Of a stretch of 64,000 nucleotides of DNA, positions 42,127 to 63,565 are shown piece after piece. The DNA comes from Acidimicrobiia bacterium (lineage in GTDB: Bacteria > Actinomycetota > Acidimicrobiia > Acidimicrobiales > JANYDT01): the NCBI GenBank assembly GCA_031423635.1, contig JANPFX010000221.1:21354-85353 (forward strand). Direction: 5' to 3'. The first letter of the stretch is position 1. Each line of letters begins with the position of its first letter. The notes under the pieces are model-generated. The model did not search any database. It saw only the letters and a list, made by a program, of their open reading frames with translations, and was not told the DNA's origin. Both the position numbers and the translations under genes were made by a program.

Positions 42127-42870
42127 ATGGACCTGGGTATAGCCGGGCGCACGGCGGCGGTTGCTGCGGGCTCAGCCGGTCTCGGATTCGGCTCCGCTCG
42201 GGCGCTGGTCGAGAACGGCGTGCGTGTCGCGTTGTGTGGACGAAGCGAGCAACGACTGATCGCCGCCGCCCAGTCACTGGGCCCGCTGGCTGTTCCGCTC
42301 GTCGCCGACGTGAGCACCGTCGAGGGAGCCGTTGCGTTCGTTGAAGCGGCACGCGCTCGACTCGGCCACATCGACATTCTCGTGGCGAACGCCGGAGGTC
42401 CCCCGCCGGGGACTTTCGCGTCGACACCGTTGGCGGCCTACCTGCCAGCGATCGAGTTGAGCCTGCTCTCAACTGTTGCCATGTGTCAGGCGGTCGTACC
42501 CGAGATGCAGTCCCGGCGTTGGGGTCGAATCGTTGCGATCACGTCGATCTCGGTTCGCCAACCGATTGCCAACCTGGTGCTTTCGAATACGGCGCGTGCG
42601 GGACTCACGGGATTCCTCAAGACGCTCGCCCGCGAAGTCGCCCCGGACGGCGTCACGGTGAACTCCGTGCAACCCGGCGTGCACGCGACGGAGCGGATCT
42701 CGAACGTCTACCGATCGATGGCCGATGCCGCAGTAGGAGTGCCGGCAGGCGTTGTCGGCGATCCGAACGACTTCGGCCAGATCGTGGCGTTCCTCTGTTC
42801 AGAGCAGTCTCGTTTCATCACCGGTGCGGCGCTCCCGGTCGATGGTGGGTCCTACGCCGGCCTGCAATGA
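42127..42870 (+). CDS. Short-chain dehydrogenase/reductase (SDR)
   Basis: ATG 42127 (MDLGIAGRTAAVAAGSAGLGFG). NAGG motif. 247 aa. ATGA overlap with the next gene. Confidence 0.85.
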   Translation: MDLGIAGRTAAVAAGSAGLGFGSARALVENGVRVALCGRSEQRLIAAAQSLGPLAVPLVADVSTVEGAVAFVEAARARLGHIDILVANAGGPPPGTFASTPLAAYLPAIELSLLSTVAMCQAVVPEMQSRRWGRIVAITSISVRQPIANLVLSNTARAGLTGFLKTLAREVAPDGVTVNSVQPGVHATERISNVYRSMADAAVGVPAGVVGDPNDFGQIVAFLCSEQSRFITGAALPVDGGSYAGLQ

Positions 42871-43670
42871 CGACGGCACGGATTCTTCTCGCCTCCGGTG
42901 GGCCGACGTATGCCCACGACCACGCGACCGCAGCATTGGTCCTGACGGACCTCCTGACGAGCGCCGGTCATGTCGTCGTAGGAATCACGACCCATCCGGA
43001 CGACATTCCCGCAGCCGTCGAGCAAACCGCGCCTGACTGCATCGTCTCGCACATGCTCTGGTGGCGAATGCTCGCAGAGCGCTACGACGATCTCAGGGCT
43101 ACCTGGGCATACGAGGCGTCAGAAGCAGTTCGCAATGCGCTCGAACGTTTCGTCATCGATGGGGGTGCGTTGGTCGCGTTGCACACGAGCACGATCTGTT
43201 TCGACGAATGGCCGGGCTGGGGAGATCTGCTGGGAGCTCAGTGGAACTGGGACCGTTCGTTTCATCCTCCGCTTGGTGCGGTGTCGGTTCGTCTGGTGTC
43301 GCCTGGAGCGGGCAGTGCTGCGGATCAGGAGACAACGGCTCGATCGAAGCCAATGGGTATTCCTGCTCTACTCACGAGTGAAGCGATCGAGGTGGTTGGA
43401 GGGCTTGTCGACTACGAAACCGTGGACGAGGTCTACATGCACCTTGATGTTCGCCACGACGCACAACCACTGGCGTTCGCCCGCCCGCTCGGCGATCCCC
43501 TCGCCGCGGAGCACCCGGTCCTGTGGTGTCGCTGCGTCGGTCGCGGTGCGGTCGCGACGTTCGGCCTTGGGCACGACGCGAGCGCGTTGTCCCACCCGAC
43601 GACGGCCGAGCTCGTTCGACGATGTGTGGCGTGGACGGTACGATCGACGCGTGCGTCGTCAGGGCACTAA
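42867..43670 (+). CDS. ThuA-like (class I glutamine-amidotransferase-like fold) protein
   Basis: 267 aa. GGALVALHTSTICFDEWPGWGDLLGAQW resembles the ThuA-domain core. Confidence 0.6.
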   Translation: MTTARILLASGGPTYAHDHATAALVLTDLLTSAGHVVVGITTHPDDIPAAVEQTAPDCIVSHMLWWRMLAERYDDLRATWAYEASEAVRNALERFVIDGGALVALHTSTICFDEWPGWGDLLGAQWNWDRSFHPPLGAVSVRLVSPGAGSAADQETTARSKPMGIPALLTSEAIEVVGGLVDYETVDEVYMHLDVRHDAQPLAFARPLGDPLAAEHPVLWCRCVGRGAVATFGLGHDASALSHPTTAELVRRCVAWTVRSTRASSGH

Positions 43671-43714
43671 CGACCACTAGAGAACCGGTGGCCGGGCCAT
43701 CCGAAGGAGCAGCA

Positions 43715-45031
43715 ATGAGCACGATGGTGATCACCGGCGCGATGGTGATCGATGGAACCGGCGCGGCGCCGCATCCCGCTGACGTCCATGTGTCCGGCGA
43801 TCGCATCGTGGCGGTCACCCGGACGTCTGAGCAGTCTGCACCGGCCCCTGGAGCGAGAATCGTCGACGCCACCGGATGCACGGTGATGCCGGGCCTGATC
43901 GACGCCCATACCCACGTGACCCTCGGCGAACCTGCTTCGAACGACGAACTGTTCTTCCGGCGCGAACCTGCAAGTGCGGCGATCATCGCTGCGGCCAACG
44001 TTCGCAAGTTGCTCCTTGCCGGTGTCACATCGTTCCTTGATGCCGATGGCCTCTACGGCATTGGCCCGGCATTGCGCGACTGCATCAACGCAGGGATCGT
44101 TCCCGGCCCGAGCATGAAGTCCGGACACCACGCGCTCATGACAGCCGTTGGAGGTACTGCTGGTCGGCTCATCCCTGATGAAGGGACGGCGGGCTACGCA
44201 GAAGTCGTGCATGACCGCGACGACATGGTGCGTGTGGTCCGGCGGCAGATCAAAGAGGGAGCCGATTGCATCAAGGTGCATGTGACGGGCTCGGTTCCGA
44301 GCCGTCGCGGTGAGTTGTGCGTGTGGAAGCGCAGCGAGCTCGAAGTCGTCTGTGAAACAGCGCACGAACTCGGCGCTTGGGTGCTCGGACACTGCCGCAG
44401 TCAGGAGTCGACCCTGCTCGCAGCCCAGACCGGGATCGACGTGATCTACCACGGGTCGTACCTCGATGAAGCGTGCATCGACGCGATGCTCGAGGCTGGT
44501 TCGCTGCTGGTTCCCACGTGGACCTTCCTGGCCAATCTCGCCGACTACGGCTCCAAGGCCGGCGCCGGTGCGATGGCTCTCGACTGGTTCGCCAGCGAGA
44601 TCGAAGCAACGGCGAAGATGACCCGCGTTGCCTACGACCGTGGCGTGCCGATTGCGTGTGGAACCGAGACCGGGTTCAGCGTGACGCCGATCGGTGAGTG
44701 GCATGCCCGAGAGATGGAAGTGTTTGTCCACCAGATGGGCATCACCCCGCTGGAGGCGATCACCTGCGGGACCCGCAACGGTGCCATCGCCACCCGCGAG
44801 CAGGGCGAGACCGGCGTTGTGGAGGTCGGTATGCGCGCCGATCTTCTTGTGGTTGACGGTGATCCGTCGGAGGACATCGCAATCCTGCAGGATCGGTCGA
44901 AGCTGCGTAACGTGATCTGTCGCGGCGAAGACGTCGATCTGACCCCCATTCCGGAGCGCCGTGACCTGCCGGGAGAACGCTCGATGTCATGGACCGCTGT
45001 CCCGTTGACGCAGGCGGTTGCCCGATCGTGA
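43715..45031 (+). CDS. Metal-dependent amidohydrolase
   Basis: ATG 43715 with GAAGGAG RBS. VMPGLIDAHTHV metal-binding motif. 438 aa. Confidence 0.8.
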   Translation: MSTMVITGAMVIDGTGAAPHPADVHVSGDRIVAVTRTSEQSAPAPGARIVDATGCTVMPGLIDAHTHVTLGEPASNDELFFRREPASAAIIAAANVRKLLLAGVTSFLDADGLYGIGPALRDCINAGIVPGPSMKSGHHALMTAVGGTAGRLIPDEGTAGYAEVVHDRDDMVRVVRRQIKEGADCIKVHVTGSVPSRRGELCVWKRSELEVVCETAHELGAWVLGHCRSQESTLLAAQTGIDVIYHGSYLDEACIDAMLEAGSLLVPTWTFLANLADYGSKAGAGAMALDWFASEIEATAKMTRVAYDRGVPIACGTETGFSVTPIGEWHAREMEVFVHQMGITPLEAITCGTRNGAIATREQGETGVVEVGMRADLLVVDGDPSEDIAILQDRSKLRNVICRGEDVDLTPIPERRDLPGERSMSWTAVPLTQAVARS

Positions 45032-45807
45032 GCACTCCGATCGCCATCGTCACGGGTGCCGGGCGCGGACTCGGCCTGGCCATCGCCGATCGTCTGCGCG
45101 CTGATGGGTTTGAAACGATCGGGCTCGACGTCGACGGAGCCGCGGGCACCATCGTGTGCGACGTCACCGATCACGCTGCGGTCGAAGTGATGATCGCCTC
45201 CCTGTCGGCGGCTCCGGCCGCTGTCGTGAACAACGCTGGCATCGTTCGGTTCGGGTCGCTACTCGACGTGAGCGACGCCGAGTTTCGCCGTGTCGTCGAC
45301 GTGAACCTCACCGGCACCTTCACCATCGCTCGCCTTGCGGCTCGCCGGATGGTGGCCGACGGTGTGCACGGGTCGATCGTGAACATCACCTCAATCAATG
45401 GGGTGTCACCGGGTCTGAACTCCGGGGCCTATGGCGCGACGAAGGCCGCTGTGGCCCTGCTCACCCGACAGATGGCGTTGGAATGGGGGCCACACGGAAT
45501 CCGAGTGAACGCTGTGGCCCCGGGGCTGATCGACGCCGGAATGTCGGAGCCGATCTACGCCGACCCCGAAGCACGGGTGGCTCGCGCGGGTCGGGTCCCG
45601 CTCGGTCGTCTGGGAACGTCGGACGACATTGCTTCGGCGGTGTCGTTCCTGGTCTCCGATCAGGCGGCCTACATCACGGGCACCGAGATGATCGTTGACG
45701 GAGGGGTGGTGCAGAGCGCGATCTCCTCGCTCCCTCGGCCCAAGGCCGTTGACGGAGTCGGCGGCGTGCCGAACGCTGCCGCCAGCAACGGGACCGTCCA
45801 TGCGTGA
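45028..45807 (+). CDS. Short-chain dehydrogenase/reductase (SDR)
   Basis: GTG 45028 (GTGA overlap). IAIVTGAGRGLGLAIA, NNAG, YGATKAA catalytic motif. 259 aa. Confidence 0.85.
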   Translation: MSTPIAIVTGAGRGLGLAIADRLRADGFETIGLDVDGAAGTIVCDVTDHAAVEVMIASLSAAPAAVVNNAGIVRFGSLLDVSDAEFRRVVDVNLTGTFTIARLAARRMVADGVHGSIVNITSINGVSPGLNSGAYGATKAAVALLTRQMALEWGPHGIRVNAVAPGLIDAGMSEPIYADPEARVARAGRVPLGRLGTSDDIASAVSFLVSDQAAYITGTEMIVDGGVVQSAISSLPRPKAVDGVGGVPNAAASNGTVHA

Positions 45808-46561
45808 CGTCGCTGGCATGTCGGTGTTGGTCACCGGCGGCGGCTCCGGGATCGGTGCGGCTACCGCCGCCCGTTTTGCATCGCTAGGCGCAAAGGTAAC
45901 GATCAGCGGACGCCGGGTCGAAAAGCTTGCGTCCGTCGTGGACGCCATTGGCACCAACTGTCGGAGCGTCGTTGGTGACGTCACGCTGGCCGCCGATCGG
46001 ACGGCGATGATCAACGCAGCAGCGGAGTTCGGTGGCGGTCTCGACGTGCTCGTGAACAACGCCGGCAACATGGTTCGCGCGTCGGTGGCGGAGTGGGACG
46101 AAGAGGCGATTCTCTCGGTGCTCAACTCCAACGTGGTCGCCGGCATGATGCTCGTGCAATCCGCACTTCCGCATCTGCTCGCGCGACGCGGTTGCGTGGT
46201 GTTCGTGAGTTCCGTGTACACCACACGGGCCTTTCCCGGAGCGGCGCCCTATGCCGTGACGAAGGGTGCGGTCGAAACGCTGACCGCCGTCCTCGCGAGC
46301 GAACTCGGTCCCCAGGGCGTGCGGGTCTCGTGCGTGCGACCGGGAGCGGTATTCACCGAAATCAACCAGCGCGCTGGACTGTGGGACGACGATGCAGCGT
46401 TGGCGAGGCTGCAGAGCATGGCCTCGGCGCACGCACTCGGCCGTATCGGCACCACCGACGAGATCGCCGAAGCCATTGAGTTCGTGTCGCGCTCCGAGTG
46501 GATCACCGGCGACGTGGTGAGCGTCGACGGTGGCCTCGGGCTCGGCCATACCCACACCTGA
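45800..46561 (+). CDS. Short-chain dehydrogenase/reductase (SDR)
   Basis: ATG 45800 (8-nt overlap with the previous gene). VLVTGGGSGIGAATA, NNAG, YAVTKGA. 253 aa. Confidence 0.85.
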   Translation: MRDVAGMSVLVTGGGSGIGAATAARFASLGAKVTISGRRVEKLASVVDAIGTNCRSVVGDVTLAADRTAMINAAAEFGGGLDVLVNNAGNMVRASVAEWDEEAILSVLNSNVVAGMMLVQSALPHLLARRGCVVFVSSVYTTRAFPGAAPYAVTKGAVETLTAVLASELGPQGVRVSCVRPGAVFTEINQRAGLWDDDAALARLQSMASAHALGRIGTTDEIAEAIEFVSRSEWITGDVVSVDGGLGLGHTHT

Positions 46562-46590
46562 GATCGTTCTCGTTTCTTTCGGAGGTCATC

Positions 46591-47802
46591 ATGTCGACAC
46601 CAACCATCGTCACCATCACGGGTCTCGACGAAGCAAGGGAGATCTACCGACACAAGGACATGGCGCAGGCACTCTACGACGAGGGCGAGATCATGAACGG
46701 TGTGCTCGTCAATCTGCATGGTGATGACCACCGCAGCCGTCGGCGTTTGGAGAATCGGCTCTTTCGCCGTGACACCCTCGATCACTACGAGCACGAACGA
46801 TTTCCTCCGATCATCAACGCCACCCTCGCCCCCCACGTCGCCGCCGGGTCCAGTGAGCTCGTCACGTTGAGCCATCAGCTGATGATGAACCTCGCCGCGT
46901 TCAATGCCGGTGTCGACCGCCCGACCGGCACGGCGGCCGAGACGCACCGGCTCTACGCCCAGATGATGAAGTTCATCGAGGGCGCCACGATCGCGCACTC
47001 CACGCGTGACAAGGCCGTTGTGAACGGCGAAGTGGCTGAAGCAATGGGCCGCTTCCAGACGGAGTTTCTCGACCCATCGATCGAGCGTCGCCGGGCCCTC
47101 ATTGACGATGTTGGCGCAGGACGAGCCTCCGAGTCATCGCTGCCACGTGACGTGCTGACCGTGCTCCTCCGCAACATCGACCAGCTCCCGCTTCCGGCCG
47201 ACATCATCCAGCGCGAGATCGCGTTCTTCCTTCTCGCCGGGGCGCATACGAGCGCAACGGCATTCACCAGATCCCTCGACAACATCTTCACGTGGATAGC
47301 GTCCCACCCGGACGATGAGGATCGTTTACGCGCTGATCGTTTGTTCGTGCAGCGGTGCGTGCATGAGACGGTTCGTTTGCAACCATCGAGTCCGGTCGCG
47401 CAACGCTGGGCCCGTTCGGAGGTCACGCGTAAGGACGGTTCCGTGATTCGTTCGGGATCGAAGGTCGTGATCGACCTCATGTCGGTCAACCGTGACCCCT
47501 CGATCTTCGGAGACGACGCTGCGGTGTTCAATCCGCACCGCGTCGTGAGCCGTGACGACGTAGGTCCTTTCGGGCTGTCGTTTGGGCACGGGATGCATCA
47601 TTGCATCGGTCAGGAATTGGCCGCCGGCGTTCTGCTCGGCGAAGGAGACGACCCCAGCAACCATCTCTTCGGCCTCGCCACGATTGCCGTGCAGGCAATG
47701 ATCGACCGCGGCGCGCGTCGCAACCCGACCAACCCACCAGTCATCGATGCCGCAACCAGCCGCCCTTACTGGTCCAGCTATCCGGTGGTCTTCAACGCGT
47801 GA
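46591..47802 (+). CDS. Cytochrome P450 (paralog A)
   Basis: ATG 46591 with GGAGG RBS. I-helix LAGAHTSA, EXXR (HETVRL), heme loop FGHGMHHCIGQELA. 403 aa. Confidence 0.9.
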   Translation: MSTPTIVTITGLDEAREIYRHKDMAQALYDEGEIMNGVLVNLHGDDHRSRRRLENRLFRRDTLDHYEHERFPPIINATLAPHVAAGSSELVTLSHQLMMNLAAFNAGVDRPTGTAAETHRLYAQMMKFIEGATIAHSTRDKAVVNGEVAEAMGRFQTEFLDPSIERRRALIDDVGAGRASESSLPRDVLTVLLRNIDQLPLPADIIQREIAFFLLAGAHTSATAFTRSLDNIFTWIASHPDDEDRLRADRLFVQRCVHETVRLQPSSPVAQRWARSEVTRKDGSVIRSGSKVVIDLMSVNRDPSIFGDDAAVFNPHRVVSRDDVGPFGLSFGHGMHHCIGQELAAGVLLGEGDDPSNHLFGLATIAVQAMIDRGARRNPTNPPVIDAATSRPYWSSYPVVFNA

Positions 47803-47843: not shown

Positions 47844-48953
47844 TCAGCTGCCGGCAGGTAGCGCGGGGCTGAGGTCGAGGCGCTCGGCGAATGGCACGGC
47901 GCGCCTCCACATCGTGAGGAACAATTCCTCGCCGCGTTTGTTGGCGGTGTCAAGGGTTGCCATGGTGACCACTCCCAGCACCGAAAAGAACAGACCGATG
48001 CCGCGCATCTGGTGCAGCAGTACATCGAGGCTCGGCGGCGTTGCGCCGGCCGCTCGGTACTCGGCCAAGTACAGATCGACGAGTTCGTCGAAGTTCCCGC
48101 ATGACACCTCGGGGTCAAGACTGAGGGCGAGGAAGTAGTACAGGTCTGTGGCGCCGGGCCCGCGGCTGGTGAGTTGCCAGTCGAGGAACGCGAAATCGGC
48201 GAGCGGCGCGGTCGGGGAGAAGACGATGTTGTCGGTTCGGAAGTCACCATGGGTGACGGTTCCCGGCTGGGAGGCGTAGTCGGCCACCCAGGAGAGAGCG
48301 TGCGGGGCGAACCGCTGTCCCCAATCCAGCATGTATTCGGGCACCATGTGGCCGTAGCGGGCCGTGGCAATCGGTAGGCAGTCGTCGTACATCGCCAGCA
48401 TTCCGGAGTTTGATGGGTCGTCGATGCGAGGTAGCCACTCGAGGTCGTCTGCTCGCCCATCGCTCCATCGGGCATGGATTTTCGCCATTGCGGTGATCAG
48501 GGTGCGCGCCTGTTCGAGGCTGCACGGTTGGAGTTGATCCCCGACATCGTATGTGTGCATATCTTCGAGGAGAAGACACCATTGCTGGGTGTCGACATCG
48601 GCTCCGTTGTAGAAGCACGCTGGCACTCGGACGGGGCTGTCCTTCGCGAGGTGGCGGTAGAAGCCGGATTCCTTTTCGTAGAGGCGAAGCATCGTGCCGA
48701 TCATCCGGCCGCCGGGATCTTGGGTCGGAATCTTGGAGACCACCGATGTCGGCGCCCCGGCTGCGACCGCTGCGACCGGGTCCTCGTACGACAACGCGAT
48801 CCGATGGATCTCGCCGATGAAGCCGACTCCTTCACCGATACGGCTGAACTCGACCGCAGTGACAGCAACCGGGCTCACGCCCGACTCGGCGAACACGCCG
48901 CTGAGCCATTCGGGCGTCATGTCTTCGACGCGTGTGGGGATCGCCTGAGTCAT
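47844..48953 (-). CDS. Phosphotransferase-family kinase (APH/CHK, ecdysteroid-kinase-like)
   Basis: 369 aa. Catalytic loop THGDFRTDNIVF and DWQL metal-binding region. Confidence 0.75.
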   Translation of the reverse strand: MTQAIPTRVEDMTPEWLSGVFAESGVSPVAVTAVEFSRIGEGVGFIGEIHRIALSYEDPVAAVAAGAPTSVVSKIPTQDPGGRMIGTMLRLYEKESGFYRHLAKDSPVRVPACFYNGADVDTQQWCLLLEDMHTYDVGDQLQPCSLEQARTLITAMAKIHARWSDGRADDLEWLPRIDDPSNSGMLAMYDDCLPIATARYGHMVPEYMLDWGQRFAPHALSWVADYASQPGTVTHGDFRTDNIVFSPTAPLADFAFLDWQLTSRGPGATDLYYFLALSLDPEVSCGNFDELVDLYLAEYRAAGATPPSLDVLLHQMRGIGLFFSVLGVVTMATLDTANKRGEELFLTMWRRAVPFAERLDLSPALPAGS

Positions 48954-49089: not shown

Positions 49090-49929
49090 TCAGTGGCGGT
49101 TCGAACTGCCCATTGCCGCATCGCGAAGTGCATCGGCAACCAGCACTCGAGCGAGGTGGCGGCGGTACGCGGATGAACCGCGTAGATCGGCGGGTGGGTC
49201 GGAGCCCTCGTCTGCTAGCGCTGCCGCGTCGGCCAAGGACGCTCCGGCTGCCAACGCGGCCTCGGTGCCACGTGCGCGAATGACCTGGGTCGCCATGGAC
49301 GCCAAGGCGACGCGTCCGCCGCATGCGGCTGCGCCGACCAGAGCCCAGTCCTGGGAGCGGATGGTGAACTTCTGGTACGACCAACCGATGCCGCGCGCGC
49401 TCGGTAGCCGAATCTCGGTGAGGACCTCGTCGGCTGCGATGGTCGAGGTCCAGAATCCGATGAAGAGGTCATCGAAAGCGATTTCTCGTTCGCCGTTGGA
49501 CCCGATGACGACCACTCTCGCGTCGAGGGCGAGGAGTGCACAGGACACGTCGCTTGCTGGGTCGGCGTGGGCCACGCCACCCCCGAGTGTGCCCCTGTTG
49601 CGCACCTGGGGGTCGCCGACGAGGGATGCAGCGCGAGCGAGGATTGGAGCGTGCTCCTGCACGATCGGTGATGCTGCGACATCGCGATACGTGGCCATCG
49701 CGTCGATGACCAGTTCCGTCCCACTGCCAGCCGGTTCAGTGTGGATTTTCCGGATCCCGAGCCCGGCCAGATCGAGCAGAACCGTGGGCGCAGCGAGGCG
49801 CAACTTCATGAGTGGCAGGAGCGACTGTCCGCCGGCGATTACCTTCGCTTCGTCACCGTACTCAGTGAGCGCGCTGATCGTCTCCTCGATCGAAGTGACT
49901 GCGATGTAGCGAAATGGCGCGGGTATCAC
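49090..49929 (-). CDS. Molybdenum hydroxylase FAD-binding medium subunit (CoxM/CutM-like)
   Basis: GTG 49929 (GTGA overlap). [14 protein letters not shown] and [15 protein letters not shown] motifs. Confidence 0.85.
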
Positions 49930-50434
49930 GGCGATACTCCGTTCGGAGGAGGGGATCCGTGCTCCGCCGCCCACCGGATCGACTCGACGATCATTTGGTA
50001 ACCGGTGCAGCGGCAGATATTGCCTTCGAGTGCTTCACGGATCTCGGTTTCGCTCGGATCAGGGTTCTCTGCCAGCAGAGCGGTTGACGCCATCACCATG
50101 CCCGGGGTGCAATAGCCACACTGCAGTCCGTGGCATTGGCGAAATCCTTCCTGTAGCGCGCTGCGGCCATCGAACGGTCCGTCGACCCCTTCGATAGTGC
50201 GGACCGAACGACCCTGCGTTTGCACGGCGAGCACGGTGCAGCTCTTTACCGCGTCGCCGTCGAGCAGCACGGTGCACGCACCACAGTTCGACGTGTCGCA
50301 ACCCACGTGCGTCCCCGTGAGGCGCAGGTGCTCCCGCAACAGGTGCACGAGGAGCGTGCGGTCTTCGACTTCATAGCGAACGCTCTTCCCGTTGACGTCG
50401 ACGTTCACCAGGGTCTTCGGATGCTCGGCGAAAT

Positions 50435-50438
<4 letters not shown>
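49926..50438 (-). CDS. Molybdenum hydroxylase [2Fe-2S] small subunit (CoxS/CutS-like)
   Basis: ATG 50438 (ATGA overlap). [25 protein letters not shown] cluster motifs. 170 aa. Confidence 0.9.
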
Positions 50439-52771
<2,333 letters not shown>

Positions 52772-56067: not shown

Positions 56068-57324
56068 TCACTTGCCCCAGAGCTTGGCGAATTGATCCTG
56101 AAATCCGTTGACCCCCGGCCACAGCTTCGATGCGTCGGCGAGACTGCCCTTCTCCAGGATCTGGAGCGGGAGGCCGTTCACCAGGATGTCGGGGTGTCCT
56201 TCGATGGATGCTTGCGCCGGGGGCGTCGAACGTCCCGGCCCAGTTCCGGAAAGCACGCGAGCAGCGACATCGATGGCCCGCCATCCGAGCAGCTCCGATG
56301 CGAGACCAACTTCGGCGACCTGGTGCTTTCCCGCATCGATGAAGCCGAAGTTCATCGGGCCACCGGCCTGTGAAATAGCTTGGGCCTGGGGGAGCAGACC
56401 GGCCGCTTCGATGGCGTCGGGCACACCGAAGAGCATGCCGCCGAAGGCGTACACGACGAAATCGAGATCCTTGTTGGCCTGTAGCTTCGAGACGATCTGA
56501 CCGGGGAGGTTGGTGCCGAGGTCGGTGATCGCGGCCTCCATGGTGTCGACCTTGCAGTCCGCACACACCTTGGCGATCTCCTCGGTGAAGCCCTTCTGCA
56601 CAGTGGACAGGACGGGGAACACCGGTAGGCCGACGAACAAGATGTTCTTCTTTGCCGATTTCGTAGCAGCGTAGTCCGCCATCAACGCACCGTAGAAGTA
56701 GTAGTCATCACCGGAGAGCAGATTCGCCGAGATACCGTTACCCGGTTCGTAGGGCTCCGGCATCGACCAGGCAATCACCGGGATCTTGGCGTCCTCAAGG
56801 GTCTTCAGCTGGGTCGCGAACCATTCCCGCGGGTTCCCGCTCGTGAGCACAACGTCGGGCTTGGCGGCAATGGCGGCGTCAAAGGCCGCAGCAACCGTCT
56901 CCGGCGTGTCCTTGTGTGCAGTGGTCTCGAGCGTCCAGCCGAGCTTCTTGGCGGCTGCTTCGATTCCGCCCTTGATCTCTTCACAGACCGGCACGCTGCA
57001 CTGCACGTAGTACACCTTCTTACCGGCGGGAATGGCGGCGATTGCCTCGTTGAACGGCAGCTCGGTGACCGGCTTCGTGAACGCTGCAACGCGATCGGCC
57101 GGATCAGTAGTAGCCGTTGCTGCGCTGGTCTCCGCAGCTGCGGCTTCGGTCGGCGCTGCCTCGGTGGCGGCCGGCTCTGTCTCTGCCGGGGCCGCCTCGG
57201 TTGCGGGTGCCTCGGTGGCGACCGCTTCCGTCGCTGCGTCGGTGGTTTTGCTGTCGCTACTGCACGCGGTGGCGATGAGGCCAACCGCAATAATGAGAGC
57301 CGACAGGATACGGCGAGATTTCAT
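56068..57324 (-). CDS. ABC transporter substrate-binding lipoprotein (periplasmic-binding-protein type I, sugar-like)
   Basis: ATG 57324. Signal and lipobox MKSRRILSALIIAVGLIATAC. ~50-aa T/E/A/P low-complexity linker. 418 aa. Confidence 0.8.
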   Translation of the reverse strand: MKSRRILSALIIAVGLIATACSSDSKTTDAATEAVATEAPATEAAPAETEPAATEAAPTEAAAAETSAATATTDPADRVAAFTKPVTELPFNEAIAAIPAGKKVYYVQCSVPVCEEIKGGIEAAAKKLGWTLETTAHKDTPETVAAAFDAAIAAKPDVVLTSGNPREWFATQLKTLEDAKIPVIAWSMPEPYEPGNGISANLLSGDDYYFYGALMADYAATKSAKKNILFVGLPVFPVLSTVQKGFTEEIAKVCADCKVDTMEAAITDLGTNLPGQIVSKLQANKDLDFVVYAFGGMLFGVPDAIEAAGLLPQAQAISQAGGPMNFGFIDAGKHQVAEVGLASELLGWRAIDVAARVLSGTGPGRSTPPAQASIEGHPDILVNGLPLQILEKGSLADASKLWPGVNGFQDQFAKLWGK

Positions 57325-57345: not shown

Positions 57346-57361
57346 CGCCCTGCGCAGGGCG
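57346..57361. promoter_or_regulatory. Perfect 16-bp palindrome in the divergent SBP / P450 intergenic region
   Basis: CGCCCTGCGCAGGGCG, 22 nt upstream of the SBP ATG (minus-strand sense). Confidence 0.5.
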
Positions 57362-57479
57362 CGTACGAGGCACGTAGTGTTGCATCTAACGACGGTGCCG
57401 TCCAACTTTTGTCGTGGTGCTCGCCGCACGGCGATCACCGGCCCGTCTGCCGATCTCTTTTCCCTCTGAGGTTTGTCCT

Positions 57480-58754
57480 GTGCCCGGCTTCTCACCTCTC
57501 CAAGACGATCCCTCGATAGGCGAAGCACTGCGCGTCGACACGTGGTCCGGCGCACGCGAGGTCTTTCGGGCCAGAACCCTCCGCCAAGGTCTTTACGACG
57601 AAGCAGGGGTGCTGATGCGCGACGTCATCGTGAACCTCCACGGTGTAGCCCACCGGGATCGGCGACGCGTCGAGAACCGGCTCTTCCGACGGGACAACTT
57701 CCGCTGGTACGACGCGGAGGTCATCCCATTTCTCATCTCCGAAGCGATCGCCGCCGACATCGCGTCGGGGCAAGCTGATCTGTTGACCCTTGCCAGGCGA
57801 ACGATGATGAAGCTCGCCTGCACGATCGCCGGTCTCGACATCGTCGACGACGATTTCGAGACCGTGTTCGCGCTTATGAATCGGCTGGCGCGAGCGGCAA
57901 CGGTCTTTCACGCAACGATCGATCACGACGAATTGCGCGCCGACGGCCTCGATGCGCTCACCCAGGTCGACACCCTGTTCGTGCGGCCGGCGCTTCATCG
58001 ACGCATCGCTCTCATCAACGCGCACGCTGCGGGCGAATGTGCCGAGGACGAACTTCCGCGAGATGTGCTCACCACGCTCCTGTGCAACCAGGACGCATTG
58101 GGCCTGCCGATCGATGTCGTAATCAGGGAAACCGCGTACTTCCCGTGGGTGGGCTCACACTCCACCGCCAATGCGTTCGTCCATGCGGTTCACCGACTCT
58201 TCCAGTGGTTCGATGCCCACCCGGCGGATCGGTTGACCGTTACATCCGATCCGTTACGCCTCCAGCGATTCGTACACGAGACGTTGCGGCTGCATCCGGC
58301 GTCACCACAGACTCACCGCCTCGGCACCGACGAACCAACGACGATCGGCGGAAACGTGATCGCTTTTGGTCAACGGGTCATCGTCGACATGGAGCAGGCG
58401 AATCGAGATCGCAGCGTGTGGGGACCGGATGCCGACGAGTTCTGTCCCGACCGTCGCATCCCCGACGACGCCGCACCATGGGGGCTCACGTTCGGGCACG
58501 GCATCCATGCCTGCCTGGGTATGGAGTTGGCCGGCGGCACGGCTCCCGAACTCGGGGCTGCCGGAGCCGTCGATCCGAACGCCCACGTGTTCGGGGCGAT
58601 CACCACGATGGCCTCGATGCTCTTCGCCCGCGGGCTCGAACGCGACCCCCGGCACCCGGCCGTGCTCGACACGTCGACCGTTCGCACCGTGTTCTCCTCC
58701 TATCCCGTGGTGTTCCGGCCGACGACCGCGACCTTGGCGTCCGTTGAACAGTGA
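57480..58754 (+). CDS. Cytochrome P450 (paralog B)
   Basis: GTG 57480 (start uncertain). NLHGVAHRDRRRVENRLFRRD, HETLRL, FGHGIHACLGMELA. Collinear similarity to the P450 at 46591-47802, including the shared C-terminal SSYPVVF. Confidence 0.85.
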   Translation: MPGFSPLQDDPSIGEALRVDTWSGAREVFRARTLRQGLYDEAGVLMRDVIVNLHGVAHRDRRRVENRLFRRDNFRWYDAEVIPFLISEAIAADIASGQADLLTLARRTMMKLACTIAGLDIVDDDFETVFALMNRLARAATVFHATIDHDELRADGLDALTQVDTLFVRPALHRRIALINAHAAGECAEDELPRDVLTTLLCNQDALGLPIDVVIRETAYFPWVGSHSTANAFVHAVHRLFQWFDAHPADRLTVTSDPLRLQRFVHETLRLHPASPQTHRLGTDEPTTIGGNVIAFGQRVIVDMEQANRDRSVWGPDADEFCPDRRIPDDAAPWGLTFGHGIHACLGMELAGGTAPELGAAGAVDPNAHVFGAITTMASMLFARGLERDPRHPAVLDTSTVRTVFSSYPVVFRPTTATLASVEQ

Positions 58755-58776
58755 CTGGATCGGTAGAGTCGCACCG

Positions 58777-59631
58777 ATGCCCGCCGAAGACGTCGTTGAG
58801 CAACTCCGACGTATTGGGATGTCCGGCTACGAAGCCAAGGTCTATCTCGCCATGCTCGCCGCCGGTCTACCGCTGAACGGATACGAACTCGCCAAGCAGT
58901 CCGGTGTTCCGCGCAGCACGGTGTACGAAACAGTCGCCAAGCTCGTGGCCCGTGGCAGCGCGTTCGAGGTCAACGTTCCCGACTCGGGAACCGCGTACCT
59001 TCCGCTCCCGATCGAGAGTCTTCTCGCCCGCGTGCGCCGCGAGGTCGACGATGCGCTCGGTGCACTTGCCACGTCGTTGCCGAACGTCAGCGCACCACGC
59101 GAGACCCATCTCACGCAACAGATCCGCGGCCGGCGCAGCGTGCTCGACCGCGCCAAGGACGTCATCGAGAGTGCCGTGTCGGATCTCCTCGTTTCGATCT
59201 GGCCGCCCGAGGTTCCGGCCGTCGTCGACGACTTGCGACGCGCCGCCGCACGTGGCGTTGAGGTGACCACCCTCGTGTTCGGTGGCGGCGACTCCCTTCG
59301 GGGAGTCGGCACGGTGTTCGAGCATCGTTTCTCGGCGCCCGACGTCGTGGAGGAACGTCTCGGTTGCCGTCTGTTCGCCTTCGTTGCCGATCGTTCCAGT
59401 GTCCTGACCGCTGGTGCAGTTGGTGAGGAGACGTGGGGCATGTGGTGTGATGACCCGGCGATGGCGCTCGTTGTTGCTGAGTACATCCGCCACGACATGG
59501 CGATCCAATCGATCCTCGGCTCCACCCACGGCCAGGCGCTCCGGGGTCTGTGGGAGGGGTCGGAGGAACTCCAGCGGCTTCGTGCCACGGTGGGTTCGCC
59601 CGGCCTGCAGGTGTTCGGGGCAAAACCATGA
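58777..59631 (+). CDS. TrmB-family transcriptional regulator
   Basis: ATG 58777. N-terminal wHTH GMSGYEAKVYLAMLAAGLPLNGYELAKQSGVPRSTVYETVAKLVARG. 284 aa. Confidence 0.8.
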   Translation: MPAEDVVEQLRRIGMSGYEAKVYLAMLAAGLPLNGYELAKQSGVPRSTVYETVAKLVARGSAFEVNVPDSGTAYLPLPIESLLARVRREVDDALGALATSLPNVSAPRETHLTQQIRGRRSVLDRAKDVIESAVSDLLVSIWPPEVPAVVDDLRRAAARGVEVTTLVFGGGDSLRGVGTVFEHRFSAPDVVEERLGCRLFAFVADRSSVLTAGAVGEETWGMWCDDPAMALVVAEYIRHDMAIQSILGSTHGQALRGLWEGSEELQRLRATVGSPGLQVFGAKP

Positions 59632-59713
59632 CCTCACGTTTCGCGACTCGATCGCGGGCGACCAGTGCTCCGGAGACCAGCTCCCCAGAAATCACATCGA
59701 AACGAAGGACTCC

Positions 59714-59938
59714 ATGATCGAACGACCCGTCGTGACCATCGACAAGGAACGCTGCGTGAGCGCAGGGCGTTGCATCGCCGATGAATCGTCAGCATTCGGT
59801 TTCGACGGCGACGAACTTGCTGAAGTTCTGCCCGGCGCTTCGGAGCTTTCGGTCGAGCGGCTGATCGTTCTGGCCCGTCGGTGCCCGGGCCTGGCGATCG
59901 AAGTTCGCTCCTTTTCCGGCGAGTTGCTGGCGCCGTGA
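59714..59938 (+). CDS. Small ferredoxin (single [3Fe-4S]/[4Fe-4S]-cluster type, P450 redox-partner-like)
   Basis: 74 aa. CVSAGRC ... CP cluster ligand pattern. GAAGGA RBS. Confidence 0.8.
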   Translation: MIERPVVTIDKERCVSAGRCIADESSAFGFDGDELAEVLPGASELSVERLIVLARRCPGLAIEVRSFSGELLAP

Positions 59939-60951
59939 GCACACCCCGCGTCGCTCGACACCTCCGGCCGGGTCCGGTCGATGTCCATGCACACGTTGTT
60001 CTGGAGGACACCTTCGGCACCGCCGGACCTCACGGACCGCGACTCGACGAAGAAGGAGGAGTGCAGGAGTTCCACGTCGGTGCGTACACGCTGTGCGGCG
60101 TACGCTACCGCGGCTCACTCTTCATGGATGCGAACCTGCGGATCGAACGCATGGACGCGCATGGCATTTCGGTGCAGGCCCTCTCGCCGAATCCGCTGAC
60201 CTACTTTCACCACGTCGATGCGTCGCTGGCGATCGACTATTGCCGACGTCACAACGACTCGTTGGCCGTACTCGTGGCAGCGCACCCGGATCGATTGGTC
60301 GGTCTCGCTCAGCTCCCGGCACAAGACCCCGACGCCGCGTGCGAGGAGCTCCGGCGAAGCATCGAGGAGTTGGGCCTCGTCGGCGGCTACATCGGAACCG
60401 ACCCTGGGCCGCGAGCGCTCGACGACGCTGCGCTCGAACAACTCTGGTCGACCTTCGTCGATCTTGACGTACCGGTGTTCGTCCATCCCGCGCCATCGGG
60501 AATCGATGGGCCGCTGCGTGATGCTCGTCTTCGCCGTTTCGATCTCGATCTCATTCTCGAGTTTGCCTACGAGGAATCCGTCGCCGTCGCACAGTTGATT
60601 TTCGGTGGCGTCCTCCACCGCCACCCTGAGCTCGACGTGTGCCTGAGCCACGGCGGTGGTGCGATCCCGTACCTCTACGGTCGGTGGGAGGCGGCCACGC
60701 GTCTACGGGCGTGGTCGCCCGACTGGCTACGCGAGCCCGGAGCATACGGTCGCATGTTGGCACGGCTGTGGTTCGACGTGCATGTCGCCGACCAGCGCGC
60801 CGTGCGTCTGCTCGCCGAGGTTGTGGGCGAGGGCCGGCTCGTCATGGGCACGAACTTCGGCGGATGGGACACCGGTGGCGATGAGTCCGAAACTGCGGGC
60901 CGTGCCGACGCTCTCGCTGACAATGCTCGGCGGCTTCTTCGCCTCTCCTAG
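59935..60951 (+). CDS. Amidohydrolase_2 (ACMSD/LigW-type decarboxylase or hydratase) family protein
   Basis: GTG 59935 (GTGA overlap with ferredoxin). VDVHAHVV N-terminal metal motif, VFVHP, LSHGGGAIP, TNFGGWD. 338 aa. Confidence 0.75.
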   Translation: MSTPRVARHLRPGPVDVHAHVVLEDTFGTAGPHGPRLDEEGGVQEFHVGAYTLCGVRYRGSLFMDANLRIERMDAHGISVQALSPNPLTYFHHVDASLAIDYCRRHNDSLAVLVAAHPDRLVGLAQLPAQDPDAACEELRRSIEELGLVGGYIGTDPGPRALDDAALEQLWSTFVDLDVPVFVHPAPSGIDGPLRDARLRRFDLDLILEFAYEESVAVAQLIFGGVLHRHPELDVCLSHGGGAIPYLYGRWEAATRLRAWSPDWLREPGAYGRMLARLWFDVHVADQRAVRLLAEVVGEGRLVMGTNFGGWDTGGDESETAGRADALADNARRLLRLS

Positions 60952-60957: not shown

Positions 60958-60994
60958 GCTGTCGTGACGTGCGCTGTCGTGACGTGCGCTGTCA
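60958..60994. repeat. 15-bp tandem repeat (2.5 copies) between convergent genes
   Basis: GCTGTCGTGACGTGC at 60958-60972 and 60973-60987, then GCTGTCA. The last partial copy contains the Rieske gene stop (60992-60994). Confidence 0.9.
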
Positions 60995-62581
60995 CCGTGT
61001 CGGATCGATGCGTTGGAAGAGTCGGTCGTAGAAGTGGCGGATCTTCGATTCGTTGTAACTCGCGAAGATCACCTCCTGCTGCTCCTGCGCCTTCAGTCCG
61101 GTTTGCACATGGGGCAGGTTGAGCGAGTCCTGTTGGAACACCTTCACGATCGGGCCGAGCTCACCTGCCAGCATCCAGTCGTCATCAACACCGAGGTGGG
61201 TGACCTTGGCCGGGGCCGGACGGTTTTCGGGGTCCGGAGCAGGCGGCCAGATCATGATCTCGAAGATTGAGGAGTTCGGATCTGAACCGTTCGGACGGAA
61301 GCGGTACATGAGGTAGTGGAAGCAACCCCACGGCGACCAGTTCGGGAAAACGGAATAGAACATCGCGTCGATCATTTCCGCGTCGCTCACATTGTCGACG
61401 TTGACCTCCCCCCCGAACTGGGTGCGGACGCCGGCGCGCTTCTGCTCGGCAATCCACGCCCGGACGGCCGGTGGACCGCCCGCCTTCACCTCCGCCGGCG
61501 GGTTCGGCGTCGACAGCGGAATGTCTTCGAGACCTGGAAGTAAGGTGCCGCCGACCCACTTGCACAGATGCGGATCGGCCTGAGTCTGCGAACCGCTGAT
61601 CCAGTTGCCTTCGTCGTCGAAGATGCTGGCGTTGCCGTCGAGATCGGTGACCTCCACGTGACACGAATCGACGCGACCTGTCTCGAGCCGTTGGTAGATA
61701 TGCCCGTTCAGCGGATGTCGCCACCTGGCATACTGCTTGCCGTCGGCGAGCCGCTCGTAGTGCGGCATACCGGCAAGATGCGGGCTTTCCACGGCATGCG
61801 GGGAGATCGCCCGGGAGAAGTTCTCGTAGACGTCGTAACGGCTGTTGGCGTCGCCGAGGTTCTCCATCAGCGTCGGGTGAGTGGCGACCGTGTGATACGC
61901 CTCCATGAACGCTTCCTGCAGGGCCTTCCAGTTCACCGGCATGATCTTGGCGACGTGCGCAGCCTTGTAGCGATGGGTGAACGGCAGGTGGGTGAAGTGA
62001 TCGCCCAGGTTGCCCAGGAAGTCTTCGAGCGGCTCGGCATTCCGATCCGGATTGATGAACACGAACCCCTGCCACACGTCGACCTTGGCATAAGGCAGGT
62101 CGTATTCGTCCTTATCAAGATCAGGGAAATCCCATTCGCACGGGATCTCCTTCAGTGAGCCGTCGAGGTTCCAGTTCCAGCCGTGGAACGCGCACCGGAG
62201 GTTCTTTGCGCCCTTGCCTTCACAGGTTCGGAGCTTGCGGCCACGATGCAGACACGCGTTGCGATGAGCCTTGATGCTGCCGTCGGCGTCACGGACGATG
62301 AGGAACGACAGGTGAGCGATGTCGTACACGTGGTAGTCGCCGACGTTCGGGATGTCATCGACGAGGCAGGCGAACTGCCACACCCGACTCCACAGGTGCT
62401 CGACCTCGAGGTCATGCCACTCCTGCGAGTAGTAGACGTGGGCCGGAACGCGAGTGTTTCCCGGCGGGAGCATGGCGGACTCTCGGCGAAGGACATCGCT
62501 CACCGGATGGGAGTCGTGGCCGAGCAGCTCGGCGAAGCTGACTCCGGCAGAGCGATTGGTTCCCGTCAGGATCTCGGTCAT
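60992..62581 (-). CDS. Rieske [2Fe-2S] non-heme iron oxygenase, alpha-subunit-like (unusually long, 529 aa)
   Basis: Rieske motif CLHRG...CAFHGW. Mononuclear iron motif EAYHTVATH. No beta subunit or reductase gene adjacent. Confidence 0.85.
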   Translation of the reverse strand: MTEILTGTNRSAGVSFAELLGHDSHPVSDVLRRESAMLPPGNTRVPAHVYYSQEWHDLEVEHLWSRVWQFACLVDDIPNVGDYHVYDIAHLSFLIVRDADGSIKAHRNACLHRGRKLRTCEGKGAKNLRCAFHGWNWNLDGSLKEIPCEWDFPDLDKDEYDLPYAKVDVWQGFVFINPDRNAEPLEDFLGNLGDHFTHLPFTHRYKAAHVAKIMPVNWKALQEAFMEAYHTVATHPTLMENLGDANSRYDVYENFSRAISPHAVESPHLAGMPHYERLADGKQYARWRHPLNGHIYQRLETGRVDSCHVEVTDLDGNASIFDDEGNWISGSQTQADPHLCKWVGGTLLPGLEDIPLSTPNPPAEVKAGGPPAVRAWIAEQKRAGVRTQFGGEVNVDNVSDAEMIDAMFYSVFPNWSPWGCFHYLMYRFRPNGSDPNSSIFEIMIWPPAPDPENRPAPAKVTHLGVDDDWMLAGELGPIVKVFQQDSLNLPHVQTGLKAQEQQEVIFASYNESKIRHFYDRLFQRIDPTR

Positions 62582-62725
62582 GACGAAACGGTAGTCCGGC
62601 GGTCAGGGATCGTTGCAGTCGGGCAGTCCCGGCTCGGTGGTGGTGAGCTCGCTGCTCTTGTAACCGTTGGCTTGGAGCCGAGTAGGCACGAAACGCCAAG
62701 CAGGTCTGTGTTCGTTCCTCAGGCA

Positions 62726-63565
62726 TCACACGGTGAGACCGGTGACCTCATCGAGCACACTCGTGCCGTCGTTGTGGGAGTGCGTGAATCCGAGCGCTCG
62801 TTCCTGACGAACGGCGTCGACAGAGCGCAGAGCGACGATGTAAGCGCGTCGCCAACTCGACTCGGTGGTGTTGCCCCCGGACCCGTGGAGCACTCCTTCG
62901 CTGTGGACCGTGATGTCTCCGCGAGATATCGGCACCGGCACCATCACATCGCCGTCACGAAGGTCGGTGATCAGGGTGTGGCTCTGGGTCCGATCCTCAT
63001 GGAGCGGCCGGTGTGCGCGGACGGGCTCGGTCTGGCTGCCCGGCAGGAACTGCATGCAGCCGTTCTCCAGCGTCGAGTCCTCGACGGCGAGCCAGCACGT
63101 GGCCGTACGTCGGTCGTCGGTGTCGATCCAATAGGCCTGATCCTGATGCCAGCCGAACACGGCGTCGCTCCGGCCCGGGTGCTTTGCGAGGAGCTGATCG
63201 AAGTCGATCGTCATTCCCTCTCCACAGAGCTGCTCGGCGATCGAGTGGGCGCGCCGCTCGAACACGTTGCCGACCCACTCGGGGTGGTAGCGGCGCGGCA
63301 GCATCACGTTGACAATGGCGTAGCCCGACGGATCGGTGCCGTGCTCACCGGTCGTCATGTCGTTGAAGTCCTTGCCATCGACCTTGATCTCCCGGCGGAG
63401 GAACGCGTCGTAGACGGCCTCGATCTCATCCACCTCGGCTTGGCTCAACACGCCGCGCAGGTGCACATAACCGTCGCGTCGGAATGCCTCGAGTTCATCG
63501 TCGGACACCACGTAGGAATCCGGACGACGTCGATCGGAACCATCGGTCTTTGTCGTGCTCGTCAC
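62726..63565 (-). CDS. Phytanoyl-CoA dioxygenase (PhyH) family Fe(II)/2OG oxygenase
   Basis: GTG 63565. FRRDGYVHLRGVL N-terminal motif. WHQDQAYW (HxD). 279 aa. Confidence 0.75.
   Translation of the reverse strand: MTSTTKTDGSDRRRPDSYVVSDDELEAFRRDGYVHLRGVLSQAEVDEIEAVYDAFLRREIKVDGKDFNDMTTGEHGTDPSGYAIVNVMLPRRYHPEWVGNVFERRAHSIAEQLCGEGMTIDFDQLLAKHPGRSDAVFGWHQDQAYWIDTDDRRTATCWLAVEDSTLENGCMQFLPGSQTEPVRAHRPLHEDRTQSHTLITDLRDGDVMVPVPISRGDITVHSEGVLHGSGGNTTESSWRRAYIVALRSVDAVRQERALGFTHSHNDGTSVLDEVTGLTV

Follow-up and report, generated by a model that had tools for sequence, protein, structure and literature searches.

We analysed a 64-kb stretch of DNA (hereafter the window) from a freshwater Ilumatobacteraceae (Acidimicrobiia) genome and, within it, the densely packed block of genes at positions 42127–63565. 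We read this block as a conserved catabolic cluster of about 15 genes to which four lineage-specific genes have been added, a reading that we hold with modest confidence, slightly above even, and whose individual reactions we infer from enzyme families. Comparison across genomes shows that the neighbourhood of about 15 genes is conserved far beyond chance, while four genes do not belong to it. The cluster is smaller than the block singled out in the original prediction and much more widespread, and it is most likely a catabolic module of familiar families.

Codon-model gene calling returned 60 genes across the window and, together with a listing of open reading frames, 19 genes in the block. 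The original prediction had spoken of 21 consecutive genes, a count that its own list, which sums to 19, does not support; its further description of a block with almost no non-coding space and with each named family at its place was correct. The coding density is 95%, only 1055 bases are non-coding, several adjacent genes overlap by 4–8 bases, and Pfam searches and the open reading frame of the ferredoxin recovered all families. The GC content of the window is 63–68% throughout. The genes are arranged in four strand blocks: (i) short-chain dehydrogenase 1 (SDR1) to cytochrome P450a on the plus strand (42127–47802), (ii) a substrate-binding protein (SBP), ATPase and permease of an ATP-binding cassette (ABC) importer, CoxL, CoxS, CoxM and a kinase on the minus strand (57324–47844), (iii) P450b, TrmB, ferredoxin and the amidohydrolase Amh2 on the plus strand (57480–60951), and (iv) a Rieske oxygenase and a PhyH dioxygenase on the minus strand. 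Three transcription units are conserved, namely SDR1-ThuA-Amh1-SDR2-SDR3-P450a, SBP-ATPase-permease-CoxL-CoxS-CoxM and P450b-TrmB-ferredoxin-Amh2, and the catalytic or ligand residues are kept in both P450s, CoxL, Amh1, Amh2 and the ThuA-like protein.

We searched all window proteins by tblastn and counted neighbouring genes in the 12 orthologous loci that are 19 kb or longer, each from a separate GTDB species representative (long loci; genomic GC 47–71%). Orthologues of CoxL with 73–96% identity are found in 33 loci from GTDB species representatives, mostly labelled Ilumatobacteraceae, Acidimicrobiia or Actinomycetota and many of them from lake or river samples; two further loci follow with 56% identity, and the next matches, at most 44% identical, are paralogues. 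The ABC genes and CoxS are present in all 12 long loci, P450a, P450b, SDR2, SDR3 and the ThuA-like gene in 10, Amh2 and CoxM in 8, and TrmB in 7. Amh1 is found in 3 long loci and as fragments at locus edges. SDR1 and PhyH occur in 2 each, the kinase in 1 and the Rieske oxygenase in none. Around paralogous CoxL genes, none of 45 loci contains any of the non-Cox cluster genes. The carriers span a genomic GC content of 47–72%, and between clades the gene order is rearranged while the membership is kept. Because membership survives these changes in order, the pattern carries the signature of a functional cluster and not of inherited adjacency.

More distant carriers delimit the core. Geodermatophilus sabuli (L082), which is not labelled as a metagenome-assembled genome (MAG), has twelve shared genes within 21 kb, at 145–166 kb of JAAGWF010000010.1 (CoxL, 54% identical; CoxS; CoxM; ThuA; P450a, 60%; ferredoxin; SDR1, 59%; Amh2, 56%; a second P450; SDR2; TrmB, 48%; SDR3) and no transporter nearby. 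The megaplasmid pTHN of Novosphingobium sp. THN1 from Lake Taihu (L085) has eleven, at about 199–215 kb (CoxS-L-M-G; Amh1, 48%; two P450s; SDR2, 56%; ThuA; SDR3; Amh2, 53%; SDR1), with a major facilitator superfamily (MFS) transporter and a TonB receptor nearby; in both organisms CoxL lies within 10 kb. Seven to ten shared genes each are found in a MAG labelled Acidobacteriota (L083: ferredoxin, Amh2, CoxL at 62%, Amh1, two P450s, SDR2, ThuA and SDR3; no transporter seen), in an Acidimicrobiales MAG (L090: the core, a TIM barrel and a 2-oxoacid:ferredoxin oxidoreductase-like gene; no transporter seen) and in a MAG labelled Rhodoferax (L091: Amh1, Amh2, SDR, ThuA, SDR and two P450s, with a LIV-type ABC transporter). 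Two marine contigs of 34% GC (L029, L030) carry SBP, ATPase and permease of a CUT2 ABC importer, CoxL at 56% and two P450s, and L030 alone an SDR. In these two contigs and in L083, too, CoxL lies within 10 kb. The universal core is Amh1, Amh2, SDR2, the ThuA-like protein, SDR3 and two P450s, in most cases accompanied by a ferredoxin; CoxLSM often joins this core, and the type of transporter varies. Three kinds of importer (CUT2, LIV-type ABC, and MFS with TonB receptor) stand beside the enzyme core, which therefore favours a role in uptake and catabolism.

The contigs L029 and L030 share the same gene order and are filed under different phyla (Crocinitomicaceae and Pelagibacterales), so that binning must have gone wrong for at least one of them; among named relatives, those nearest to their P450 come from Alphaproteobacteria and Rhodoferax MAGs. 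Two further matches were set aside: plasmid pSCAT of Streptantibioticus cattleyicolor contains the P450 and ferredoxin only, and the match in Paracoccus versutus does not represent this cluster.

The first unit opens with SDR1 (42127–42870, plus strand; Pfam adh_short_C2, 1.2e-48), a semi-conserved member with orthologues of 76–94% identity in the related loci L002–L004 and of 42% in Novosphingobium. Its stop codon is overlapped by 4 bases by the start of the ThuA-like gene (42867–43670, plus strand; PF06283, 7e-17, with a domain score of 62.8 against the 33.4 bits needed for the gathering threshold), a core gene. The ThuA-like protein has no sequence relative in the PDB; it is probably an enzyme, since seven His, Asp and Glu residues (H17, H106, D113, H133, D187, E188 and H236) are kept across 23 orthologues of 27–86% identity. 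A Gfo/Idh/MocA (ThuB-type) partner is absent from the window, and one adjoins ThuA in G. sabuli. Amh1 (43715–45031, plus strand; Pfam Amidohydro_1) is of the prolidase/ochratoxinase, that is amide hydrolase, type and belongs to the core in the cross-phylum variants, with orthologues of 48–61% identity in L083, L085, L089, L090 and L091. Its best PDB matches are amidohydrolases, ochratoxinase and Xaa-Pro/Arg carboxypeptidases (1e-27 to 5e-41), and its HxH, Lys and His ligands are invariant in the orthologues. The core dehydrogenases SDR2 (45028–45807, plus strand; Pfam, 7.9e-53) and SDR3 (45800–46561, plus strand; Pfam, 5.5e-44) share 51–64% and 54–65% identity, respectively, with their counterparts in L082, L083, L085, L090 and L091.

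P450a (46591–47802, plus strand; PF00067), the last gene of this unit and a core member, encodes 403 residues of haem domain only, with the Cys ligand motif FGHGMHHCIG and the I-helix motif AGAHTS. More than 2700 homologues were found. AlphaFold2 predicts a confident P450 fold (pLDDT 89.8), with generic Foldseek neighbours at a TM-score of about 0.7; identity to any solved P450 is at most 21%, and the fold comparison yields no clue to the substrate. P450b (57480–58754, plus strand; PF00067), the first gene of the third unit and likewise core, has 424 residues, again haem domain only, with motifs FGHGIHACLG and VGSHST, and is 43% identical to P450a. Both enzymes are remote from anything solved, and in both the acidic I-helix position (Asp or Glu of AGxD/ETT) is occupied by His. 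The motif AGAHTS is present in 120 of 120 P450a homologues among the matches listed, and the His may represent a family-wide change in the proton-delivery site.

The second unit combines the importer with the molybdoenzyme. Its first gene encodes the substrate-binding lipoprotein SBP (56068–57324, minus strand; Peripla_BP_4), whose PDB relatives are weak (best, ribose-binding protein, 4e-6) and which has no NCBIfam match. It is followed by the ABC ATPase with tandem nucleotide-binding domains (54271–55977, minus strand; Pfam), whose best NCBIfam matches (AraG, YtfR, XylG, RbsA) are all below cut-off, and by the permease (52889–54172, minus strand; BPD_transp_2), which in the long loci is always directly upstream of CoxL. 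A Peripla_BP_4 binding protein, an ATPase with two nucleotide-binding domains and a BPD_transp_2 permease make up the architecture of a CUT2 (sugar-type) importer; equivalence to a sugar system of known specificity does not follow, the NCBIfam matches of ATPase and permease being below cut-off. The carbohydrate-type uptake of the original prediction is not supported: the importer is lineage-specific, and other carriers of the enzyme core have a LIV-type ABC transporter or an MFS transporter with TonB receptor.

CoxL, the molybdopterin subunit (50435–52771, minus strand; Pfam), CoxS, the subunit with two [2Fe-2S] centres (49926–50438, minus strand; Fer2_2 and Fer2), and CoxM, the FAD subunit (49090–49974, minus strand; FAD_binding_5 and CO_deh_flav_C), form a molybdenum hydroxylase of form II type: CoxL contains AYRGAGR at residue 349 and GIGESG at residue 725, with the catalytic Glu near the C-terminus, and the [2Fe-2S] and FAD subunits are separate. 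The nearest solved structures of CoxL are CO dehydrogenase and quinoline oxidoreductase, and it stays below every NCBIfam cut-off. CoxM is not beside CoxS in one subclade. An Ilumatobacteraceae clade of 47% GC has a CoxG-like gene before the ABC genes (L012, 5289–5738) and an NDH-2-type flavoprotein gene after CoxM (L012, 13661–14896); in Novosphingobium, CoxG follows CoxM (L085, 9809–10390).

In the third unit, P450b is followed by the TrmB-family regulator (58777–59631, plus strand), which consists of the TrmB helix-turn-helix and an effector domain (PF01978 and PF11495, both above gathering scores; equivalog models far below cut-off, 43 against 600 bits) and has, in addition to that of G. 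sabuli, an orthologue of 52% identity in L090. The ferredoxin of 74 residues (59714–59938, plus strand; ATG at 59714) was taken from the open reading frame listing; its counterpart in L001, an independent ENA metagenome contig, carries a weak Fer4_15 match, and ferredoxins adjoin a P450 in L082, L083, L084 and L090. Amh2 (59935–60951, plus strand; Pfam Amidohydro_2), a core gene of the ACMSD/hydroxybenzoate-decarboxylase type, matches ACMSD (6e-35), gamma-resorcylate decarboxylase (4e-26), LigW, LigJ, LigY and salicylate decarboxylase in the PDB. Its metal ligands H18, H20, H184 and D281 are invariant in 14 orthologues, corresponding to the HxH, His and Asp ligands of ACMSD-related decarboxylases, and it is closer to decarboxylases than to lactonases.

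The divergent region between SBP and P450b contains a block of 24 bases, CACGTAGTGTTGCATCTAACGACG (57371–57394), that hardly varies between the window, L002, L003 and L004 while its flanks diverge; this conservation marks it as a candidate operator or promoter element. Beside it, just upstream of the SBP gene, lies a perfect 16-base palindrome, CGCCCTGCGCAGGGCG (57346–57361), which is in part kept in L002 and L003. A 13-mer found upstream of SDR1 and between SBP and P450b was rejected as an operator shared between units, being not conserved in L002 and probably due to chance; the 24-base block is the sole conserved element of this search. A scan for consensus promoters and terminators gave no more sites than shuffled sequence, and Rfam returned no riboswitch or other RNA match within the window.

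From these families we propose the following working of the cluster. The ABC system would import a small polar organic compound, Amh1 would cut an amide-type C–N bond, and the two ferredoxin-dependent P450s would hydroxylate two different C–H positions (for example on alkyl, methoxy or ring carbons). The SDRs would act with the ThuA-like protein to convert alcohols to carbonyls; the form-II-type CoxLSM would oxidise an aldehyde to an acid or hydroxylate a ring carbon adjoining nitrogen; and Amh2 would remove a carboxyl group or hydrolyse a C–C bond. TrmB may sense the compound and control the units. The substrate most likely has alkyl or methoxy groups open to oxidation and an amide or N-substituent on a molecule that contains a hydroxylated ring or a sugar-like part, and a compound with a sugar-like and a (hetero)cyclic part is a reasonable guess. 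It is probably a common component of dissolved organic matter, because the cluster is kept in abundant planktonic Acidimicrobiia and related copies are labelled Rhodoferax, Pelagibacterales and Crocinitomicaceae. As a more speculative extension, to which we attach little probability, the cluster would encode a pathway of worldwide distribution for a dissolved metabolite that occurs everywhere (for instance a heterocycle derived from a vitamin, or an amide that is mycosporine-like or derived from a cyclitol), with CoxL acting on the imported compound and perhaps passing electrons via the iron-sulfur subunit and ferredoxin to the P450s. Such a transfer would explain the lack of a ferredoxin reductase in all variants examined. 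Geodermatophilus sabuli and Novosphingobium sp. THN1 appear to be cultured, so that direct tests are possible, and identification of the substrate would give function to thousands of database proteins.

Several observations weigh against the catabolic reading. The window contains neither a ring-cleavage enzyme nor, as the original prediction had noted, a ferredoxin reductase, a Rieske reductase or an XdhC/CoxF-type maturation gene, according to Pfam searches of 59 of the 60 gene calls and the context of the ferredoxin. The Pfam search proposed at the time confirms the families, and no window protein reaches an NCBIfam subfamily or equivalog cut-off, so that every activity is a family-level guess; PDB sequence searches gave family-level matches at best. 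Amh1 is missing in one Ilumatobacteraceae subclade, which has a TIM-barrel gene at another cluster position, and xylose-isomerase-like TIM barrels occur in nine related loci. The molybdoenzyme may be a separable module, because CoxLSM is missing within 10 kb in L089, L090 and L091 and because two Ilumatobacteraceae loci contain ABC and CoxLSM genes alone. A sugar-like character of the substrate is not secured, since the transporter type varies. Most carriers are MAGs, some with doubtful taxonomic labels, and a tailoring or detoxifying role retains some probability.

We weighed more specific and competing explanations against this reading. The use of a methylated or deoxy sugar or cyclitol, which we consider unlikely, would have the P450s O-demethylate the substrate or add missing hydroxyls, SDR and ThuA produce keto-sugars, and the molybdoenzyme dispose of formaldehyde or another aldehyde. 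The demethylation of 6-O-methyl-galactose by P450 and ferredoxin is an established precedent (PMC6292453, PMC9400963); TrmB, ThuA and the CUT2 importer of the window and the TIM barrel of the nine related loci point in the same direction, as do the Gfo/Idh/MocA and IolM-like genes that adjoin ThuA in G. sabuli. However, this scheme leaves the conserved amide hydrolase and the ACMSD-type decarboxylase unexplained, other carriers use LIV-type and MFS transporters, and P450a is not specially close to any sugar-binding P450.

One substrate-specific form of the catabolic reading, in our estimate quite improbable, would be a variant pathway of riboflavin/lumichrome breakdown, or one for a different methylated N-heterocycle that bears a ribityl or sugar tail. 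The P450s would oxidise ring methyls to carboxylates, Amh1 would open the amide ring, Amh2 would decarboxylate, and CoxLSM would hydroxylate the heterocycle. In the lum operon these enzyme classes act in the same sequence, and variants of it are expected by the authors who described it (PMC12746152); the window has a sugar-type importer and regulator, and hydantoinase A, cupin and HpcH aldolase genes near the cluster in L083 recall LumH, LumY and LumX in size. Yet the hallmarks of lum are absent (the fused P450, LumK/L, the single-chain 140-kDa xanthine oxidase, Rieske alpha/beta with reductase, and extradiol dioxygenase), and the window contains no FMN riboswitch according to Rfam.

We give an equally small weight to a pathway that oxidises or aromatises an alicyclic carboxylic acid or a terpenoid-like compound, of the kind known from carboxyl-rich alicyclic dissolved organic matter. 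In L082, L083, L089 and L090 the core is accompanied by genes for KstD/ChcC-like flavoprotein desaturases, for SnoaL/LEH and for luciferase-like proteins, the NCBIfam matches of SDR2 include ChcB2 (below cut-off), the chc pathway offers a precedent, and P450s of marine Acidimicrobiales have been linked to recalcitrant compounds (PMC10205998). The desaturases, however, are absent from the window, all similarities fall well short of the family cut-offs (108 against 1000 bits), and a sugar-type importer would be an odd choice for such acids.

A biosynthetic or tailoring cluster for a secondary metabolite is very unlikely: P450, SDR and ferredoxin are common tailoring genes and the nearest solved P450s are mostly biosynthetic, but no variant examined contains a scaffold enzyme (polyketide synthase, nonribosomal peptide synthetase, terpene synthase or glycosyltransferase), importers and a TonB receptor adjoin, and planktonic Ilumatobacteraceae with genomes of low GC content (47%) retain the cluster. 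That the whole block is a mosaic of unrelated operons lying side by side is extremely unlikely. A mosaic does describe the Rieske oxygenase, PhyH, the kinase and the left-hand 2-oxoglutarate oxygenase, and ABC-CoxLSM stands alone in L016–L018; for the core it is refuted by the co-occurrence in 10 of the 12 orthologous against 0 of the 45 paralogous CoxL loci and across three bacterial classes in different gene orders. That CoxLSM is an aerobic CO dehydrogenase with no relation to its neighbours is hardly credible: its best solved relatives are CO dehydrogenases, but the form I loop AY(R)CSFR with its copper-binding cysteine is replaced by AYRGAGR, CoxL falls below the CO-dehydrogenase models (TIGR02416, 587 against 991 bits; NF040766, 563 against 950 bits), Pfam finds no coxDEF-type maturation genes in the window, and in 12 of 12 loci CoxLSM shares an operon with an organic-solute importer.

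The same neighbourhood comparison, which the original prediction had itself proposed, divides its single contiguous system: about 15 genes stand as conserved, and the Rieske oxygenase, the kinase and PhyH (0, 1 and 2 of the 12 loci) do not. The combination of five oxygen-inserting chemistries in one system is lost with them, since of these the P450s and the molybdoenzyme alone belong to the conserved set. Outside it lie the kinase, the two accessory oxygenases (Rieske and PhyH) and the left-hand 2-oxoglutarate oxygenase. The EcKL/APH-type kinase (47844–48953, minus strand; Pfam EcKL, 3e-19) occupies the last position of the ABC-Cox operon, a slot whose content varies, and is limited to the window and L002. 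In L003 the corresponding slot between CoxM and P450a (13800–15050) holds a DUF4143/AAA_14 ATPase, and in L004 (14023–17096) STAND/AAA_16 and ATPase_2/DUF234 genes; the slot is a hot spot of gene turnover inside the cluster.

The gene for the Rieske oxygenase alpha subunit of 529 residues (60992–62581, minus strand; Pfam) is an accessory insertion that, with its 144-base upstream region, occupies the exact junction of Amh2 and PhyH, a gap of about 40–57 bases in L002, whose CoxL is 96% identical. An identical protein with the same neighbours is found on L001, and homologues with 82% and 73% identity have unrelated gene surroundings and, in each case, an FMO-like flavoprotein of about 600 residues as neighbour. 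In the 40-base gap between Amh2 and the Rieske gene, a 15-base unit, GCTGTCGTGACGTGC, is tandemly duplicated (60958–60987); the duplication is absent from the corresponding junction of L002 and L003. The PhyH-family 2-oxoglutarate dioxygenase (62726–63511, minus strand; PF05721, 4e-35) is clade-specific, with L002 and L003 as its only carriers beyond the window. At the opposite edge, between a pentapeptide-repeat gene and SDR1 (40082–41816), lie a 2-oxoglutarate-Fe(II) oxygenase and a small CarboxypepD_reg-like protein (41277–41816), which are local insertions, because the pentapeptide-repeat gene abuts SDR1 in L003. Oxygenase genes thus seem to accumulate at both cluster edges. Upstream of SDR1 in L002 (about 20935–21046), an 8-base tandem repeat, (GGTTCGAC)n, runs to the contig end.

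The rest of the window consists, by Pfam, mostly of housekeeping genes (ilvBN, ilvC, serA, ETF, exporters). A minus-strand set at 3327–8103 encodes a cupin, a protein of no known family, EthD, AA_synth (PF06684) and an AurF-like diiron N-oxygenase, with a divergent MerR regulator and then an MFS transporter beyond it; this set could be a separate small oxidative or biosynthetic unit.

The original prediction recognised no described pathway in the block, and this stands: we found no description of the cluster in the literature and no curated family model, solved structure or paper that assigns a pathway to it. Diketopiperazine, pantothenate, thymine, folate and mycosporine were considered as substrates and set aside, as each matches some of the genes only. 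In design, the cluster comes closest to the lumichrome (lum) and cyclohexanecarboxylate (chc) pathways; judged by gene content and model scores, it belongs to neither. We compared the window with the published description of the lum enzymes. In the lum pathway, a P450 converts a methyl group to a carboxylate and is followed by amidohydrolases, a decarboxylase and a xanthine-oxidase-type enzyme, and the variants expected include Stadtman's route, which keeps the ribityl chain (PMC12746152). The operon lumA-Y of Nocardioides simplex (Sinha et al. 2025, PMC12746152) unites a similar mix of enzyme classes in one catabolic cluster: a methyl-oxidising P450, alcohol and aldehyde oxidases, amidohydrolases, a decarboxylase, a xanthine-oxidase-family hydroxylase, a Rieske oxygenase and transport genes. 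LumU is a fused, self-sufficient P450 of 81 kDa (haem, ferredoxin and reductase), whereas the P450s of the window are haem-only with a separate ferredoxin; LumJ is a single xanthine-oxidase chain of 140 kDa, whereas the window has the three-subunit CoxLSM; and decarboxylation in lum depends on thiamine pyrophosphate (two-subunit LumK/L), whereas the sole enzyme of this kind in the window is acetolactate synthase (19394–21157). The lum pathway further needs the extradiol dioxygenase LumE and a Rieske alpha/beta oxygenase with ferredoxin and reductase (LumABCD); Pfam finds no extradiol dioxygenase, Rieske beta subunit or Rieske reductase in the window, and its lone Rieske alpha subunit is not conserved. 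Conversely, the lum description names no counterpart of the ThuA-like protein, TrmB or the second P450.

In the chc pathway of Sinomonas cyclohexanicum (Yamamoto et al. 2021, as summarised in PMC9795900), a P450 is followed by an SDR and then by desaturases. According to this summary, hydroxylation by P450 and ferredoxin precedes oxidation to a ketone by an SDR, as we propose for the window, and unlike the window the pathway as summarised includes no molybdoenzyme, amidohydrolases or ThuA. KstD-like desaturases of the chc kind are present in several cluster variants and absent from the window, which has no FAD_binding_2 gene. SDR2 scores 144 bits against the 350 required by the NCBIfam ChcB2 model, and the desaturase homologues of G. 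sabuli score 108 against a required 1000; similarity to the ChcB2, ChcC1 and ChcC2 models thus stays well short of what these models demand. The O-demethylation of 6-O-methyl-D-galactose by P450 and ferredoxin is established in marine Bacteroidota (PMC6292453, PMC9400963). A P450 and a small ferredoxin, both of them kinds also present in the window, act there on an imported polar carbohydrate with linked aldehyde handling; the P450 is of another family, the genes form part of a polysaccharide utilisation locus, and amidohydrolases, ThuA and a molybdoenzyme are lacking.

The thuEFGKAB (3-keto-disaccharide) and the iol/moc cyclitol clusters combine a sugar-type ABC importer, ThuA and the NAD-dependent oxidation of ring alcohols, and moc clusters add an oxygenase-dependent O-demethylation. 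P450s, molybdoenzyme and amidohydrolases are not known from these clusters, and the window is without ThuB (Gfo/Idh/MocA) and iol genes; common to both are the sugar-type ABC importer and a ThuA domain, and a TIM-barrel enzyme occurs in the related loci. With form II CoxL-type hydroxylases, often annotated as putative CO dehydrogenases, the window enzyme shares AYRGAGR and the three subunits, and as in that group a CoxG gene adjoins in L010/L012 and in Novosphingobium. Environmental surveys routinely count form-II CoxL genes as putative CO dehydrogenases. Unlike other enzymes of this type, CoxLSM of the window is fused in one operon to an ABC importer and tied to the P450/SDR module; this tie of one form-II CoxL group to an organic-solute importer and a P450/SDR/amidohydrolase module therefore argues for an organic substrate.

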